From Bacteroidota bacterium (GTDB lineage: Bacteria; Bacteroidota; Ignavibacteria; UBA10030): DNA of 64,000 nucleotides. Below are positions 16,471 to 21,304 of this stretch, piece by piece. The notes below the pieces were generated by a model. That model was not told where the DNA came from, did not search any database, and saw only the letters and a list, made by a program, of their open reading frames with translations. The position numbers were made by a program, and so were the translations under genes. Every line of letters starts with the position of its first letter. Position 1 is the first letter of the stretch. The stretch spans positions 663 to 64,662 of the forward strand of contig JBEKNC010000010.1 of the NCBI GenBank assembly GCA_049523215.1, in the 5' to 3' direction.

Positions 16471-16515
16471 AGTTTAAATATTGAGAAAATCGATGCCATT
16501 TTCATATTTCCTTCC

Positions 16516-16523
16516 CTTAAGTG
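16516..16523. repeat. Left target-site duplication CTTAAGTG
   Basis: Identical to 21297-21304. Confidence 0.9.
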
Positions 16524-16539
16524 GGTAGTGGGCTACTTT
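16524..16539 (+). repeat. Left terminal inverted repeat
   Basis: GGTAGTGGGCTACTTT, exact reverse complement of 21281-21296. Confidence 0.92.
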
Positions 16540-16667
16540 AGATTCCATTTTTAGCTATTCTCGCTGTGATTCGGGAACTTATATTGCTTTTAGGTGTAAT
16601 GTTTATCATGTTTGTAGTGTCGTGCCAATAGCTCACTAAATACTTCACTAATTGTACGGGGTTCATT

Positions 16668-16955
16668 ATGGCTGCTCTCCGAGTATACTGTATCAATAAA
16701 CGAGAACATTATAACCCACATGAACGCATAACCCACATCGGTGGATTCAATGCAAATGAAACCCGATGGAAACTTACCGAAAACAACGCCATTGCTGGAA
16801 TTAAAAACGGAACATATAGTTTTTATGTTTCCATCAACGGTAAATCCGTCAATGTTATCATCGCCATACACAACGGTAGAGAATATCTCAAAACCGAAGC
16901 CGACGGATATGAACCAAATAACCTACTCAGCTTGCCAGAGTGTCCAAGCCTATAG
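16668..16955 (+). CDS. DUF3892-like small protein (passenger)
   Basis: RVYCINK...HERITHIG...YLKTEADG..NNLLSLPEC pattern. Confidence 0.75.
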   Translation: MAALRVYCINKREHYNPHERITHIGGFNANETRWKLTENNAIAGIKNGTYSFYVSINGKSVNVIIAIHNGREYLKTEADGYEPNNLLSLPECPSL

Positions 16956-16956
16956 G

Positions 16957-17166
16957 TTAAAATATTTTTCCAGTCATTGCTGTTTTGTATGGTGACATAG
17001 CAATATTGGGATTTATTACCCATGTCAACGCCTGTTGCATCGCATACAATTGACCATATCTGCCCGATGATATTGTCTTAGAATGTAGCTTATGCGAAAT
17101 ACTTTCAAGCTCCATCTTTATTCTATTCGGGGACGGGTTATTTATTTTAGGATATAGTTTCATCAT
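16957..17166 (-). CDS. Small hypothetical protein (passenger)
   Basis: 69-aa ORF convergent with the DUF3892 gene; no recognised motif. Confidence 0.45.
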   Translation of the reverse strand: MMKLYPKINNPSPNRIKMELESISHKLHSKTISSGRYGQLYAMQQALTWVINPNIAMSPYKTAMTGKIF

Positions 17167-17224
17167 TATAATTTACCGAGAAATGAGTGACACTACAACA
17201 CTAATGTGAGTACACTTGAAGACG

Positions 17225-17253
17225 TTGACTTTATCGAAGAGAATAACTATAAT
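17225..17253 (+). promoter_or_regulatory. Near-consensus sigma70 promoter with no downstream ORF
   Basis: TTGACT-N17-TATAAT. Confidence 0.8.
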
Positions 17254-17259
17254 TAGTCC

Positions 17260-17342
17260 CCTCGCGTCTTTTCCCTCCCCAAGAAAAACGCGAGCCGAAG
17301 CCTCGACAAATTTTGGCGTTTATGTCGAGGCTTCACTTTTTT
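17260..17342 (+). ncRNA. Candidate ~83-nt small RNA
   Basis: Promoter upstream, hairpin with C-rich loop, 12-bp terminator stem GAAGCCTCGACA/TGTCGAGGCTTC plus T run; no ORF. Confidence 0.55.
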
Positions 17343-18175
17343 TAAGCGGCTTTTCTAATCTGTGTTCCGAGTAATAAGTTTTCCCAAGTCCAAATTGTGT
17401 GTGTTACGTTTGCTTGCATTGCTGGCGTTACTCTCAATGATGAATGAATACGCATAAAGTTGTAATGATAGAAATGCAGTGCAACAGCACATTCAAGATT
17501 TCTTAACTTCTTACTGAAAGCATTTGTTAAACGTGTGAATCTTCTCATTTGCATTCTCATTGTAAGATTCTGTCTCTCAATGTAACTGGTAGAAATATGC
17601 TTTCTGTTAGGGCTTCCGATTAGCGGATTTATTATAACCCTCACAATCTGAGCGGGACTGTACCGTTTTTCACCTTTTCCATCATCTGCATATTCTTTGT
17701 GAATCTGTCCATAGTCAATGTCTTCACCAAAAACAGAATCTACAACATTAAAATAAGGCGCGAATGAATCCGTAGAGAGTTGAAAGCGTGTGCTGATTCT
17801 GTACTGCAAATCCTTTATGAATGATTGCGTCACTTGAATGTTTCTTTTGCCTACTTTGTAAACCGGAACAAGTTTCGTTTCTGCATCCATAGCTACAAAT
17901 ACATATTGATCGCCCAATTCTTTTGAATCATTCTCTGTGAGTTGTTTTTGTTTCTTCCCTACATAAGTCCAGATTTCATCTACTTGTACATATTTTGATT
18001 GAATGCCTACCATTTGAGTGTCAAGGATTTCTTTCGCTTGTTCTCCAGCTTCAATGAGTAAGCGCATAACTGTTTTCTTGTTCACGCCTGTGAGTCTAAC
18101 AGTGGAACGGATTGAGTTTCCTTCTACAAGGGAATTGAGAACTAAGATTTTCTTTCCGAGTGGTAATGAGTTCAT
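17342..18175 (-). CDS. IS1-family DDE transposase (single ORF, HTH plus catalytic core)
   Basis: HTH VEGNSIRSTVRLTGVNKKTV; VDEIW, LSTD, YIERQNLTMRMQMRRFTRLTNAFSKK. Confidence 0.88.
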   Translation of the reverse strand: MNSLPLGKKILVLNSLVEGNSIRSTVRLTGVNKKTVMRLLIEAGEQAKEILDTQMVGIQSKYVQVDEIWTYVGKKQKQLTENDSKELGDQYVFVAMDAETKLVPVYKVGKRNIQVTQSFIKDLQYRISTRFQLSTDSFAPYFNVVDSVFGEDIDYGQIHKEYADDGKGEKRYSPAQIVRVIINPLIGSPNRKHISTSYIERQNLTMRMQMRRFTRLTNAFSKKLRNLECAVALHFYHYNFMRIHSSLRVTPAMQANVTHTIWTWENLLLGTQIRKAA

Positions 18176-18195
18176 TGCGGTGCTCCAAGTTTAAC

Positions 18196-18224
18196 TTGAT
18201 TTTTTCCCGCAATGAACGTATATT
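18196..18224 (+). promoter_or_regulatory. Promoter firing antisense to the transposase leader
   Basis: TTGATT-N17-TATATT. Confidence 0.7.
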
Positions 18225-18230
18225 GAAACA

Positions 18231-18424
18231 GGGTCTTTGTCCGTTCACGCGGGCATTGATTTAGGGTTTGCAGGTGTTAGTAGCACTTGCAGACCCGCTT
18301 AAAAAAGCGGGTTACATAATAGTATTTTAAGCACGTTACTCATACACCGTTCCCTTCTGTGAAATGCTGATAACATTTCACTTTGATTGTTTTGAGACTG
18401 GCACTCACGTTGAGTGCCTTTTTT
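18231..18424 (+). ncRNA. Candidate ~195-nt structured antisense RNA
   Basis: Promoter, 13-bp hairpin whose two G-U wobbles work only on the + strand, further hairpins, terminator GGCACTCA/TGAGTGCC plus T6. Confidence 0.5.
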
Positions 18425-19091
18425 ATTTCGCAACATTTTTCTTCTTCAATTCTAAAAATCCAATAATAAAATCCAAATCATCAATAGTAATATTTGTCGG
18501 CAATGAAAATTCAAATTTATTTCCACTCGGAAGCTCAAAATTTTGCATTAATCCATGTGCCTGTAGAATCGTTGACACATTTTTTGTTTCTTCGCTCGGC
18601 TGTTTAACATCGTCTCTCAATGTCAAACTAAAATGCGACTTGGGACTAATGGCTTTAAAAGAATTAACCACAAATTCATACCAATAAGTAACGCCATCCC
18701 TGTCAATTCCTAACGATTTTAATAAAACTTGTTTTAATGTATCTGATTCTGGTGGCAACTTGGCATTCGGATAACGACCGAGAAGTTCTTGCAATACATC
18801 AACTTTATCAAAGGCTTTGTGAATGGCTTCTACATCTTCTCCAGCAACGGGATTAACAATTTGGACGGCAAGGTCTGTGAGCTGAATATGTTCACCTTGC
18901 TTATTCAATAAACCAAAGGTTTGAAGTGCGGCGATCCTTCGCGGGAAATAACTACTATTCTTACTTGTATTCAAAAGTTTCGGATCAAGAGAATCCATGT
19001 TGAATCGTTGATTAGCATGAATGACATAAATATCTTTGATAATCCTGATTGCGTCATTTAAATCAAGTGCAGGTGGATATTTAGTTGGCAT
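18423..19091 (-). CDS. Hypothetical protein, possible winged-helix fold (passenger)
   Basis: 222-aa ORF with SD AAAGGAG and its own promoter. Confidence 0.75.
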   Translation of the reverse strand: MPTKYPPALDLNDAIRIIKDIYVIHANQRFNMDSLDPKLLNTSKNSSYFPRRIAALQTFGLLNKQGEHIQLTDLAVQIVNPVAGEDVEAIHKAFDKVDVLQELLGRYPNAKLPPESDTLKQVLLKSLGIDRDGVTYWYEFVVNSFKAISPKSHFSLTLRDDVKQPSEETKNVSTILQAHGLMQNFELPSGNKFEFSLPTNITIDDLDFIIGFLELKKKNVAK

Positions 19092-19124
19092 CTTCGTTCT
19101 CCTTTATGTTATTCTTATTGATAC

Positions 19125-19153
19125 AATATAATACACGAATATATAAAAGTCAA
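19125..19153 (-). promoter_or_regulatory. Promoter for the 222-aa gene and probably the transposase
   Basis: TTGACT-N17-TATATT on minus strand. Confidence 0.75.
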
Positions 19154-19215
19154 GTACAAAATACAAATACTTGTATTTATTTATAGATGTGTGCATAAGA
19201 CTGGTTTTTGCTGGT

Positions 19216-19244
19216 TTGACAGAGCGCGCGAAAAGGTGTACTAT
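19216..19244 (+). promoter_or_regulatory. Promoter for the toxin-antitoxin operon
   Basis: TTGACA-N17-TACTAT. Confidence 0.75.
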
Positions 19245-19344
19245 CATGTGTAACAAAATGCACAGAATGTGGCTCCATTTTGTGCGTCGTTCTTTTACAT
19301 AAAAAATTCCGTCTATCATAGTACCTATTCAGAACGATGCTAAC

Positions 19345-19392
19345 AATTAACGCACAACGGATGAAGAATTAACGCACAACAGATGAAGAATT
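19345..19392 (+). repeat. 22-bp tandem repeat in the TA leader
   Basis: AATTAACGCACAAC(G/A)GATGAAG twice with one mismatch, plus AATT. Confidence 0.9.
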
Positions 19393-19401
19393 GAGGAAGA
19401 T

Positions 19402-19656
19402 ATGGAAAATGCAATGATAAACGAAAAAAGCCGGTTGAATTTAAACACAACCGGACTAAGCGAAAAAATGAATTTATGGGCGGAAGAACTCAATATGACT
19501 GCCACCGAACTCGTGCGTAAGGCATTAAGCGATTTCATTGACAGATTGGAACGAAATAGGCGTGAGCAGGAATTAGCAGAGGCTTGTCGGAATTACCGTG
19601 AATTCAACAAGAAGTTTTCCTCTGAGTGGGCACGATATGAGACGAGGATTAAATGA
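19402..19656 (+). CDS. Ribbon-helix-helix antitoxin (MazE/NdoAI-like)
   Basis: Beta strand-helix-helix pattern (MTATELVRKAL); 4-bp overlap with the toxin gene. Confidence 0.8.
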   Translation: MENAMINEKSRLNLNTTGLSEKMNLWAEELNMTATELVRKALSDFIDRLERNRREQELAEACRNYREFNKKFSSEWARYETRIK

Positions 19657-20006
19657 GTCATGTTCAAAGAGGGGAAGTATATATGGTTAAACCCGATCCA
19701 AGTATCGGTAAAGAACAGAAGAACAAAAGACCCTGTGTCGTGGTATCTTCAAATATAGTCAATTCAACTGCGGGGCTTATTGTTGTTTGTCCTGTCACAG
19801 AGGGGCTTGGATTGCAAGCCGATATAATTCATATTTCGTTGAATAAGGGTGAGGGTGGCTTAACAAAGGACTCTATTATTTTGTGCGATCAAATAAAAGC
19901 AGTAGATGAGACGCGAATAATAGAAAAGCTGGGCAATCTAAGTGGGGGAATCATGCAAAAGATAGACACCGCCTTGTGTGATATCCTAAATCTTCATAAG
20001 AATTAG
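19653..20006 (+). CDS. mazF: MazF/PemK endoribonuclease toxin
   Basis: RGEVYMV..DPSIGKEQ..KRPCVVVS, SIILCDQIKAVD. Confidence 0.93.
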   Translation: MSHVQRGEVYMVKPDPSIGKEQKNKRPCVVVSSNIVNSTAGLIVVCPVTEGLGLQADIIHISLNKGEGGLTKDSIILCDQIKAVDETRIIEKLGNLSGGIMQKIDTALCDILNLHKN

Positions 20007-20026
20007 CGTTACGATATATACCACGA

Positions 20027-20052
20027 TAAAGCCCCATTTGTGAGGGGCTTTA
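20027..20052. terminator. Bidirectional terminator
   Basis: TAAAGCCCC / GGGGCTTTA between convergent ORFs. Confidence 0.7.
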
Positions 20053-20304
20053 TTGTTTAATTAAAACGGTTTGCACTTCCCCATTTTCCACAAACAACGC
20101 ATATCCATTCGGCACAATTTCACCTTTTCTCACATCCCGCACTACCACATATCTTTCCCGCTTTTCAACGTGCCGATCTTTAGGGTTTCTGTGAACACAG
20201 GTAATATACCACTTATCCCCGCCGTTCATCGTTCGAGCAAAAGAGATAGCTTCACTCTTAGATAAGCTGTTGCTAATAGCGAACATTAATGTTTTATTTT
20301 TCAT
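20050..20304 (-). CDS. Small hypothetical protein (passenger)
   Basis: 84-aa ORF ending at the terminator; protein-like composition. Confidence 0.55.
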   Translation of the reverse strand: MKNKTLMFAISNSLSKSEAISFARTMNGGDKWYITCVHRNPKDRHVEKRERYVVVRDVRKGEIVPNGYALFVENGEVQTVLIKQ

Positions 20305-20338
20305 ATTATTGATGTATTAGGGCTTGGTTAAAAAATAA

Positions 20339-21196
20339 ATGAGCACAATAAAAAGACAAAAGAGAAATAAAAAGGAACAAGACAGCAATCTTCCTGTTTC
20401 TCTTAAAGATGAGTCCCAAAAACTTGAGGACAGAGAAAATCCCGAAAACATTACCGCTATTGAAGAATACAAAGCTCAGTCCGTAATAAAACCCATATTT
20501 ATTCCCAAAGAGACTCTTTTCGTCGAAGAAGGAAGATTTGAGAAAGTTAGAATTGCCCTTGAAATCATTGTTACAATTGTTGGACTCGGAACTCTTTGGT
20601 GGTTCATTCAATCCAGCGCAACTCAACACGCCGATTCTGTCAATGCTCTCAAATTGGCTAAAGAGTCCTCTGATTCTTCCGATATAGCCACAAAAAAATC
20701 TATTGCTCTTGCTGAAAGTTCTTTTGTCGCTACAAAAAAGAGCTTGCAACTTGCTCAAAGGAATTTTCAAATCGAAAATAGACCTTACGTGGGAATAAAA
20801 AATATTACTATTGATTCTTTGGAAGTTGGCAAGAAATATGTTATCAAAATCTTTTATCAAAACTTTGGGAAAATTCCAGCGCAAAACCTGATAATCACCG
20901 GCATAGGAGAACCACATACCATTAGGGAATATAATATTTTTAAATATGATACGACCATAGGAAGTATAGCTGTTGTGCCGCCCTCGGAAATTCTCTTTGC
21001 TACCCTTGTTAGTGATGGTAAGTTGACTAACGAAGAGATTGATAATTTTAGGAGGGGAAATTGGTATCTTTATGTTTATGGTATGATTACATATTCGGAT
21101 GTTTTCAATGGGAAAGACACTACAACATTTTGCTTCATGCTTGATTATTCCAGTAAAATGTTTTATGCTGGTCGCTATAATAACAGGATAAAATAA
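20339..21196 (+). CDS. Single-pass membrane hypothetical protein (passenger)
   Basis: Charged N-terminus, one TM helix, coiled coil, beta-rich C domain (ENRPYV...NFGKIPA). Confidence 0.7.
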   Translation: MSTIKRQKRNKKEQDSNLPVSLKDESQKLEDRENPENITAIEEYKAQSVIKPIFIPKETLFVEEGRFEKVRIALEIIVTIVGLGTLWWFIQSSATQHADSVNALKLAKESSDSSDIATKKSIALAESSFVATKKSLQLAQRNFQIENRPYVGIKNITIDSLEVGKKYVIKIFYQNFGKIPAQNLIITGIGEPHTIREYNIFKYDTTIGSIAVVPPSEILFATLVSDGKLTNEEIDNFRRGNWYLYVYGMITYSDVFNGKDTTTFCFMLDYSSKMFYAGRYNNRIK

Positions 21197-21280
21197 TATG
21201 AGCAAACCCAAACCAATAATTAGAACCGAAGTTAGAAACCCGACAAACCCAACCCCGCCCTTACCCCTATATATGGATCC

Positions 21281-21296
21281 AAAGTAGCCCACTACC
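21281..21296 (-). repeat. Right terminal inverted repeat
   Basis: AAAGTAGCCCACTACC. Confidence 0.92.
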
Positions 21297-21304
21297 CTTA
21301 AGTG
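21297..21304. repeat. Right target-site duplication CTTAAGTG
   Basis: Identical to 16516-16523. Confidence 0.9.

Follow-up and report, generated by a model that had tools for sequence, protein, structure and literature searches.

Antisense RNA control of transposases is known from few worked examples, mainly the insertion sequences (ISs) IS10 and IS200, both of which are enterobacterial and helped by the RNA chaperone Hfq. In the fold-back inhibition of IS10 and IS50, an upstream segment of the leader pairs with the start-codon region, and transcripts entering from outside the element are thereby left untranslated. Antisense RNAs may also act at a distance, as in plasmid R1, where CopA/CopT works together with the leader peptide tap, and as with further RNAs that control plasmid copy number. 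In IS10/Tn10, the stem-loop antisense RNA-OUT is transcribed from an outward promoter, pairs with RNA-IN and mediates multicopy inhibition (PMC5006887). In IS200, the small RNA art200 lies opposite the 5′ untranslated region (5′-UTR) of the transposase mRNA, a leader stem hides the ribosome-binding site (RBS), and the two are reported to act independently (PMC4513863). Here we describe a stretch of DNA (18196-18428) inside a 4.79-kb IS1-family cargo transposon from a Bacteroidota bacterium (Ignavibacteria), located in a 64,000-nucleotide window of contig JBEKNC010000010.1, to which all coordinates refer. The stretch is internal to the transposon rather than an IS end, and it is probably the transposon's own antisense small RNA (sRNA) gene, likely repressing the transposase by way of a switch in the mRNA leader.

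The locus shares with IS10 an outward promoter that lies by the start of the transposase gene and converges on transposase transcription, a stable stem-loop antisense product, and an expected role in copy-number-dependent repression of transposase translation. Whereas RNA-OUT pairs over the RBS and start codon, however, the RNA described here is separated from the AUG by ~55 nt and would work by rearranging the leader. It also consists of two hairpins (~75 nt) or takes a 195-nt form, in contrast to the single hairpin of RNA-OUT, with which it has no sequence or structure homology, Rfam giving no match, and the element belongs to the IS1 rather than the IS4 family. An earlier reading of the DNA letters by a model (the first-pass annotation) had likened the RNA to RNA-OUT and SymR. 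The first likeness holds for the outward promoter and the discrete folded transcript and fails for the site of action, as neither RBS nor start codon is covered. The second does not apply, since SymR and other type I antitoxin RNAs are directed at a toxin and the presumed target here is a 277-aa IS1-family DDE transposase. Unlike the Hfq-helped IS10 and IS200 systems, the host has no Hfq: no match to PF17209 was found in its 100%-complete genome, in which control profiles score, so any sRNA control in this bacterium works without Hfq.

Promoter, folded RNA and terminator opposite the transposase leader

The stretch sits between a 222-aa cargo open reading frame (ORF) and the transposase gene, both on the minus strand, which is the layout described at first pass, and the promoter, hairpins and terminator listed there are all found in place, with the terminator U run reaching 18428 (Table 1). 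The outward promoter, P_out, is of the sigma-70 type and fires away from the transposase gene from a position just upstream of its start codon. Promoter-like sites are not above chance in the 4-kb region (12, compared with 12.8 in shuffled sequences), and P_out is credible because of its conservation: a match at 8 or more of the 12 positions is found in 29 of 33 relatives, and in the −10 box A2 and T6 are nearly invariant. The family form is TTGAYT-N17-TAnnnT, in which the −35 box is TTGATT or TTGACT and the spacer is 17 nt (rarely 18). Position and spacing are constant among relatives although the spacer letters vary, and acidobacterial relatives carry TTGMCN-17/18-(C/G)AWAAT at the equivalent place.

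The predicted start site lies 7 nt past the −10 box. From there, the plus-strand RNA (18231-18430) folds at −68.8 kcal/mol, compared with −45.2 ± 4.4 for shuffled sequences (z = −5.4; 0 of 200 as good). The RNA begins with a 5′ hairpin (H1), followed by hairpin A, of which two wobble pairs, T18268-G18292 and G18273-T18287, form on the plus strand only, as had been pointed out, and turn into A.C mismatches on the minus strand. Hairpin C shares the four letters ACCC (18293-18296) with the 3′ arm of hairpin A. Hairpins C and D are neutral as to strand, the former having one G-U pair either way and the latter pairing entirely by Watson-Crick rules; hairpin D is retained with different stem sequences in three relatives (L013, L015 and L036). 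An intrinsic terminator, in the form of a G+C-rich hairpin with a U run immediately behind it in the transcript, occupies 18400-18428: an 8-bp stem (18400-18418, five G-C pairs) with the loop CGU runs into UUUUUUAUUU, and the minus-strand reading has no U run after the hairpin. Terminator-like sites number 8 in the 4-kb region, compared with 2.1 ± 1.5 in shuffles. The terminator abuts the stop codon (18423-18425) of the 222-aa gene.

Table 1. Positions of the transposon, its genes and the RNA features in the 64,000-nucleotide window
Feature	Position	Strand	Description and basis
Transposon	16516-21304	.	16-bp terminal inverted repeats GGTAGTGGGCTACTTT (at 16516, inverted at 21304), both flanked by the 8-bp target duplication CTTAAGTG; read directly
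Transposase, IS1-family DDE, 277 aa	17342-18175	-	Presumed target of the antisense RNA
Transposase translation initiation region	18170-18187	-	GGAG 18187-18184, AUG 18175-18173; CCGCAAUGAAC (18180-18170) complementary to segment X
P_out	18196-18224	+	−35 TTGATT 18196-18201, 17-nt spacer, −10 TATATT 18219-18224; consensus scan, 9/12 matches
Segment X of the transposase mRNA leader	18206-18218	-	CGUUCAUUGCGGG; as DNA the P_out spacer; outside the sRNA
Predicted antisense sRNA, long form, ~195 nt	18231-18428	+	Starts at G18231, ends in the terminator U run
H1, 5′ hairpin	18231-18262	+	Outer stem GGGUC/GAUUU, inner stem UGUCCGU/GCGGGCA, loop UCAC
Upstream arm of the leader	18241-18254	-	GCCCGCGUGAACGG; pairs with X; wholly covered by the sRNA
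Hairpin A, 13 bp	18264-18296	+	GGGTTTGCAGGTG / TTAGTAG / CACTTGCAGACCC; RNA loop UUAGUAG
Hairpin C	18293-18312	+	ACCCGCTT / AAGCGGGT (arms also given as ACCCGCUU / AAGCGGGU); read from the sequence, present in the fold
Candidate leader mini-ORF	18299-18343	-	MSNVLKILLCNPLF, then stop; Shine-Dalgarno-like AGAAGGGAACGG at 18358-18347; stop in the hairpin C loop
Conserved block of the long RNA	18336-18358	+	Contains UUACUCAUACACC; alignments of long-type loci
Hairpin D, 8 bp	18359-18381	+	Followed by UUUGAUUGUU; found by scan
Intrinsic terminator	18400-18428	+	GGCACTCA CGT TGAGTGCC, then TTTTTTATTT; found by scan
222-aa cargo ORF	18423-19091	-	Without family match

Conservation and strand of the RNA

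The 150 nt upstream of the start codon were aligned for 33 relatives, among which a block of ~135 nt is conserved. H1 (11-16 bp) and hairpin A (13-15 bp) form in 33 of 33 when the sequences are folded singly from a start 6-7 nt past the −10 box. In alignment A2, 87.8% of the cells are paired, compared with 73.6% after shuffling (0 of 500 as high) and 39-47% with slid partners. Hairpin A shows compensatory changes at 13 of 13 pairs, with 95.7% of its cells paired, and six of the ten modelled H1 pairs have changed on both sides. The hairpin loops are not conserved among relatives; for this reason, and because the transposase is an IS1-family DDE enzyme, a reading of the transcript as a guide or bridge RNA was dropped.

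The wobble pairs assign the structure to the antisense strand. In H1, 177 pairs are Watson-Crick, and G-U pairs number 75 when the antisense strand is read and 12 when the sense strand is read; for hairpin A the G-U counts are 47 antisense versus 3 sense. RNAalifold gives −22.4 kcal/mol for the antisense strand versus −9.7 for the sense strand, predicting all 13 hairpin A pairs on the former and nine on the latter. The antisense RNA is also more stable than its complement by ~12 kcal/mol in 54 of 54 loci, comprising 34 from genomes and 20 from metagenomes, the latter having taken no part in model building. The acidobacterial group has an equal design in unrelated sequence, with H1, hairpin A and a U-rich tail, and 25% of its pairs are G-U.

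Short and long architectures

The core common to the whole family is ~75 nt, consisting of H1 and hairpin A, and the 195-nt form is limited to a subset that includes the window. In 22 short-type loci, five or more U are found in the 10 nt after hairpin A; hairpin A with its U run is here an intrinsic terminator, and the RNA is ~75 nt. Ten loci of alignment A2 are of the long type (the window, L005, L006, L012, L013, L015, L029, L035, L036 and L046), with no U run after hairpin A and with a hairpin C that overlaps hairpin A by 4 nt. Hairpin C is present in further long-type loci too, always with the same 4-nt overlap. Past hairpin C there is a conserved block and then, in most loci, an antisense-strand hairpin with a U run, located 174-212 nt from the predicted start in six of them (L012, L013, L015, L036, L046 and L091). 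The initial estimate of a ~195-nt antisense RNA over the transposase leader, starting near 18231, fits the window because the window falls in the long-type subset, and it is upheld by the conservation of the promoter, the covariation and G-U bias of H1 and hairpin A, the long-type terminators and the metatranscriptome contig described below. The mutually exclusive hairpins proposed along with it are real as an overlap between hairpins A and C and are confined to long-type elements; the better-supported exclusive pairings are those of the transposase mRNA described below.

In short-type elements, a small HTH_17 gene (excisionase/MerR-like; 38 bits) is found at L003:2655-2867 and at the same place in ~20 relatives, its stop codon lying at most ~12 nt from hairpin A. 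Given the position of the 222-aa gene in the window, both architectures thus have an upstream ORF that ends at the edge of the structured leader.

The long RNA contains a conserved linker, UUGAUUU, and, within its conserved block, the near-invariant 13-mer UUACUCAUACACC. The conservation of the 13-mer is accounted for by its being antisense to GGUGU-AUG-AGU-AA, the Shine-Dalgarno sequence and start of a candidate mini-ORF in the transposase mRNA leader. The Shine-Dalgarno sequence and AUG are retained in long-type relatives that have the block, with predicted peptides of the form MS[KN]xLK[IL].. and 8-9 residues. Two other kinds of predicted peptide, one a family of the form RFF..RSIIT, occur at the same place behind a similar Shine-Dalgarno sequence; L005, L006 and L097 are without the mini-ORF. 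As with CopA and tap, the antisense RNA would bind upstream of the regulated RBS and, in the long type, covers the start of a candidate leader ORF. In contrast to the R1 system, over 110 nt separate the end of the mini-ORF from the transposase AUG, which makes direct translational coupling unlikely. A sense promoter at TAAAAT (18329-18324), considered because of TGCTATAAT at that place in L005 and L006, was not adopted, as TAAAAT in the window corresponds to codons 5-7 of the mini-ORF and has no fitting −35 box.

A three-way complementarity in the transposase mRNA leader

The sRNA is perfectly complementary to the transposase mRNA leader and overlaps the leader only, the Shine-Dalgarno sequence and AUG of the transposase lying outside it. 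Between the sRNA and the AUG is segment X of the leader, which has two alternative partners. With the start region, X (18207-18217) forms 11 perfect pairs to 18170-18180, including the AUG, and with the upstream arm it forms a duplex of −19.9 kcal/mol in the window. Among relatives, the X:start-region duplexes range from −7 to −22 kcal/mol (−11.5 or better except in L013) and the arm:X duplexes are of similar strength. Both are specific to their own locus: cognate X:start-region pairs average −15.2 kcal/mol, compared with −11.7 for non-cognate pairs and −7.2 for shuffled X, and cognate arm:X pairs average −17.5 versus −12.6 for non-cognate pairs (permutation p < 0.0002 for each). The partner of X includes the Shine-Dalgarno sequence or the AUG in 33 of 33 loci, and the pairing persists where X has changed in sequence and its target has moved (L011, L012, L022, L023 and L025), and through a G-to-A/C-to-T pair of changes in L036. 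That the partner always falls on a translation signal is what would be expected of an RBS-hiding helix and not of a DNA operator.

The arrangement combines features of the described systems. As in IS200, an sRNA opposite the transposase 5′-UTR is accompanied by mRNA structure hiding the RBS, here the X:start-region helix that sequesters the start codon or Shine-Dalgarno sequence and is conserved and covarying in 33 loci. Independent action is reported for IS200; here the two are probably coupled, since the strand occupied by the RNA is the competitor of the sequestering helix. In addition, IS200 encodes an HUH rather than a DDE transposase, and there is no homology between the systems. As in IS10/IS50 fold-back inhibition, the start-codon region can be paired to a segment further upstream in the leader, but here that sequestering segment also has a rival partner, and its DNA is at once the spacer of the antisense promoter.

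The promoter, the structure and strand of the RNA, the terminators and the three-way complementarity are all conserved, and the pattern of complementarity suggests that the sRNA acts by releasing the strand that sequesters the ribosome site. During transcription of the leader, the upstream arm would pair with X and leave the ribosome site open. The sRNA would capture the upstream arm, and the freed X would then pair with the start-codon/Shine-Dalgarno region, closing the ribosome site and turning translation off. An increase in element copies would give more sRNA and hence less transposase. From these complementarities we infer pairing of the RNA with the leader inside cells and, as its result, repression of transposase translation. 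Convergent transcription may add to the repression, and direct binding to the start region is conceivable for the 5′ hairpin of the sRNA, in which a sequence much like X recurs. This direct pairing is better than that of X in L013; as it is interrupted in the window (5 + 4 pairs), it is kept as a side mechanism only.

A simple sense-strand hairpin formed by CCCGC..TGAACG and CGTTCA..GCGGG was rejected, as one arm is the antisense-promoter spacer, for which the other partner is the start-codon region; the sequence between the two arms forms H1 in the antisense RNA. The heptamer TTGATTT occurs twice, at 18196-18202 (the −35 box) and 18256-18262 (the 3′ part of H1), flanking the arm/X repeat. Both copies are kept in relatives.

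Metatranscriptome contigs over the locus

Contigs assembled from metatranscriptomes (Logan) were compared with the locus; these data are unstranded and give no direction of transcription. In a bioreactor run (X12), a 217-nt contig from a relative, ~83% identical and with a depth of 7.3, has its first base aligned at 18231 and continues to match as far as 18428, where the U run ends. A transcription start near 18231 had been set beforehand as a test of the antisense RNA, and this one unstranded contig begins exactly there. Contigs of the transposase gene in the same run have a depth of ~2, compared with 7.3 for the sRNA contig. In another run (X11), a contig of 160 nt spans 18168-18326 and includes the transposase start codon. 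Three peat metatranscriptomes (X7, X13 and X14) contain transposase mRNA of relatives and nothing over 18230-18320; given library size selection and unitig breaks at repeats, these gaps are weak negative evidence. At the short-type locus L004 (L004:2848-2989), perfect-match contigs from two peat metatranscriptomes lie over the helix-turn-helix gene and stop at 2848/2849, followed by a gap to ~2989 across the sRNA and leader region and then by coverage of the transposase gene.

Weighing of the alternatives

Several observations count against an antisense sRNA gene that controls the transposase through its leader. The X12 contig is a single, directionless observation from a relative and extends 21 nt past the U run, and the X11 contig respects neither predicted end of the RNA, although it may merge reads of both strands. 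Two peat metatranscriptomes have no contig over the sRNA region of the short-type L004, a gap that could also have arisen because small RNAs were lost when the libraries were made or because the assembly graph broke. Hairpin A of the window lacks a U run, so the length of its RNA depends on the terminator further downstream. With Hfq absent, the host has no known chaperone, although fully complementary RNAs may not need one. The X helices are nearly all Watson-Crick (18 G-U and 13 A.C), and their wobbles therefore distinguish neither the strand nor an RNA from a DNA level of action. Finally, the AUG is paired in the whole predicted ensemble of the window leader, that is, sequestration of the start codon is predicted without any contribution from the sRNA. 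As the closed form is the predicted equilibrium, the switch would need kinetic, co-transcriptional folding, in which the open form would be kinetic.

Among the alternatives, the one that fares best, though we consider it unlikely, is that the RNA is made and has its main job elsewhere, in transcriptional interference with cargo read-through, on targets in trans, or as a cofactor of the transposase or the small HTH protein. P_out faces the cargo-gene promoter at 19153-19125, which would suit interference, and the near-invariant 13-mer and the conserved linker UUGAUUU are unexplained by leader pairing alone. The 13-mer is, however, explained as the antisense of the mini-ORF Shine-Dalgarno sequence and AUG, and translational control is indicated by a three-way complementarity whose final target is in every case the Shine-Dalgarno sequence or AUG. 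As for a cofactor role, we know of no RNA requirement among IS1-family DDE transposases.

It is less probable still that the conserved structure is a cis-acting leader of the transposase mRNA only, with the promoter boxes on the opposite strand incidental and no functional antisense RNA. The G-U pairs of H1 and hairpin A taken together (122 antisense versus 15 sense) argue against it, as do the ~12 kcal/mol by which the complement is weaker at all 54 loci, the 17-nt spacing that the −35 and −10 boxes keep across a variable spacer, the restriction of U runs and terminators to the antisense strand, and the contig that begins at the predicted start site. What a purely cis-acting leader does explain is that the X:start-region and arm:X pairings belong to the sense RNA, that the AUG in the window is sequestered without the sRNA, and that the X11 contig spans leader and start codon. 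IS1 itself is repressed by binding of InsA near its promoter, and the short-type elements encode an adjoining HTH_17 protein; nevertheless, it is very improbable that a protein such as an InsA-like repressor or the N-terminal helix-turn-helix of the transposase recognizes the arm, X, the start region and the hairpins as DNA, since the absence of wobble bias in the X helices, which would fit such sites, is outweighed by the G-U bias of H1 and hairpin A that marks an RNA of one strand, by an X partner that shifts between AUG and Shine-Dalgarno sequence by lineage while staying on a translation signal, and by stem letters that vary freely while pairing persists.

The antisense sRNA gene acting through a leader switch is accordingly preferred. 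A bolder form of this reading, which we offer tentatively and regard as somewhat less likely than not, is that the elements carry an undescribed type of remote-control switch for an IS, in which the RNA stays clear of the RBS and captures the decoy partner of a start-hiding strand encoded by the spacer of its own promoter, the leader ORF of the long type adds a translational input, and the whole could serve as an Hfq-independent copy-number sensor in IS1-type cargo transposons from Ignavibacteriota/Bacteroidota to Acidobacteriota. The principle itself, self-restraint of mobile DNA through antisense RNA, is already known. What the locus adds is a well-defined sRNA family outside Rfam, found in a different IS family, across several phyla of uncultured bacteria from soil and peat, and in a host that lacks Hfq. 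With its promoter, two hairpins, terminator and three-part leader, the design is clear and readily testable.

Distribution of the family

Relatives of the transposase number more than 500 in each of two collections, one of genomes and one of metagenomes, and belong to Ignavibacteriota/Bacteroidota, Acidobacteriota, Desulfobacterota and other phyla. A covariance model (R1) built from the alignment of relatives finds the motif on the antisense strand beside the transposase start; no close relative is without it, and matches are weaker in distant ones. Among 401 genomes of the phylum the R1 motif is present in 11, at one to four copies each, which fits a mobile element. The model could be used to annotate such elements and their orientation in metagenomes. 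The Rfam/Infernal check proposed at first pass was run as a cmscan of 16500-20500 with E up to 10 and gave chance-level matches elsewhere and none in 18190-18430. Full-text literature searches found no paper on an antisense RNA of the IS1 family.

The transposon and its surroundings

The transposase matches Pfam DDE_Tnp_IS1 with 26 bits (above the cut-off) and NCBIfam transpos_IS1 with E = 4.6e-15 (below the cut-off), and the host genome contains one full copy of the transposon. A 12-nt inverted repeat (17338-17349 / 18295-18306) was considered as the IS ends and rejected, as the true ends with their target duplication are at 16516 and 21304 and as the repeat unit in L052 and L054 reaches far past the transposase. 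Further cargo at 19402-20006 consists of a MazF/PemK toxin (98 bits) and, upstream of it, a small partner.

The first-pass annotation had the transposase bracketed by two antisense RNAs, the second being an 83-nt unit on the other side of the gene. This is not established: the stretch that holds the unit (17225-17342) is missing from the close relative L004 (L004:3816-3891), and one metatranscriptome contig skips 17264-17336. Together, the gap and the skipping contig make the stretch look like an optional module rather than a fixed part of the element.

In one genome, three copies (L024, L026 and L027) of a repeat of more than 5.1 kb contain the transposase, two of them at contig ends, and the repeat unit is much larger than a simple IS. 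In several lineages (L106, L114 and L129; L042, L045, L049, L051, L056, L059, L065, L068, L072, L076, L078 and L081), a tRNA gene oriented like the transposase lies directly upstream of the transposase leader, ~40-150 nt from the transposase start, and can be read as cargo or as a preferred insertion site.

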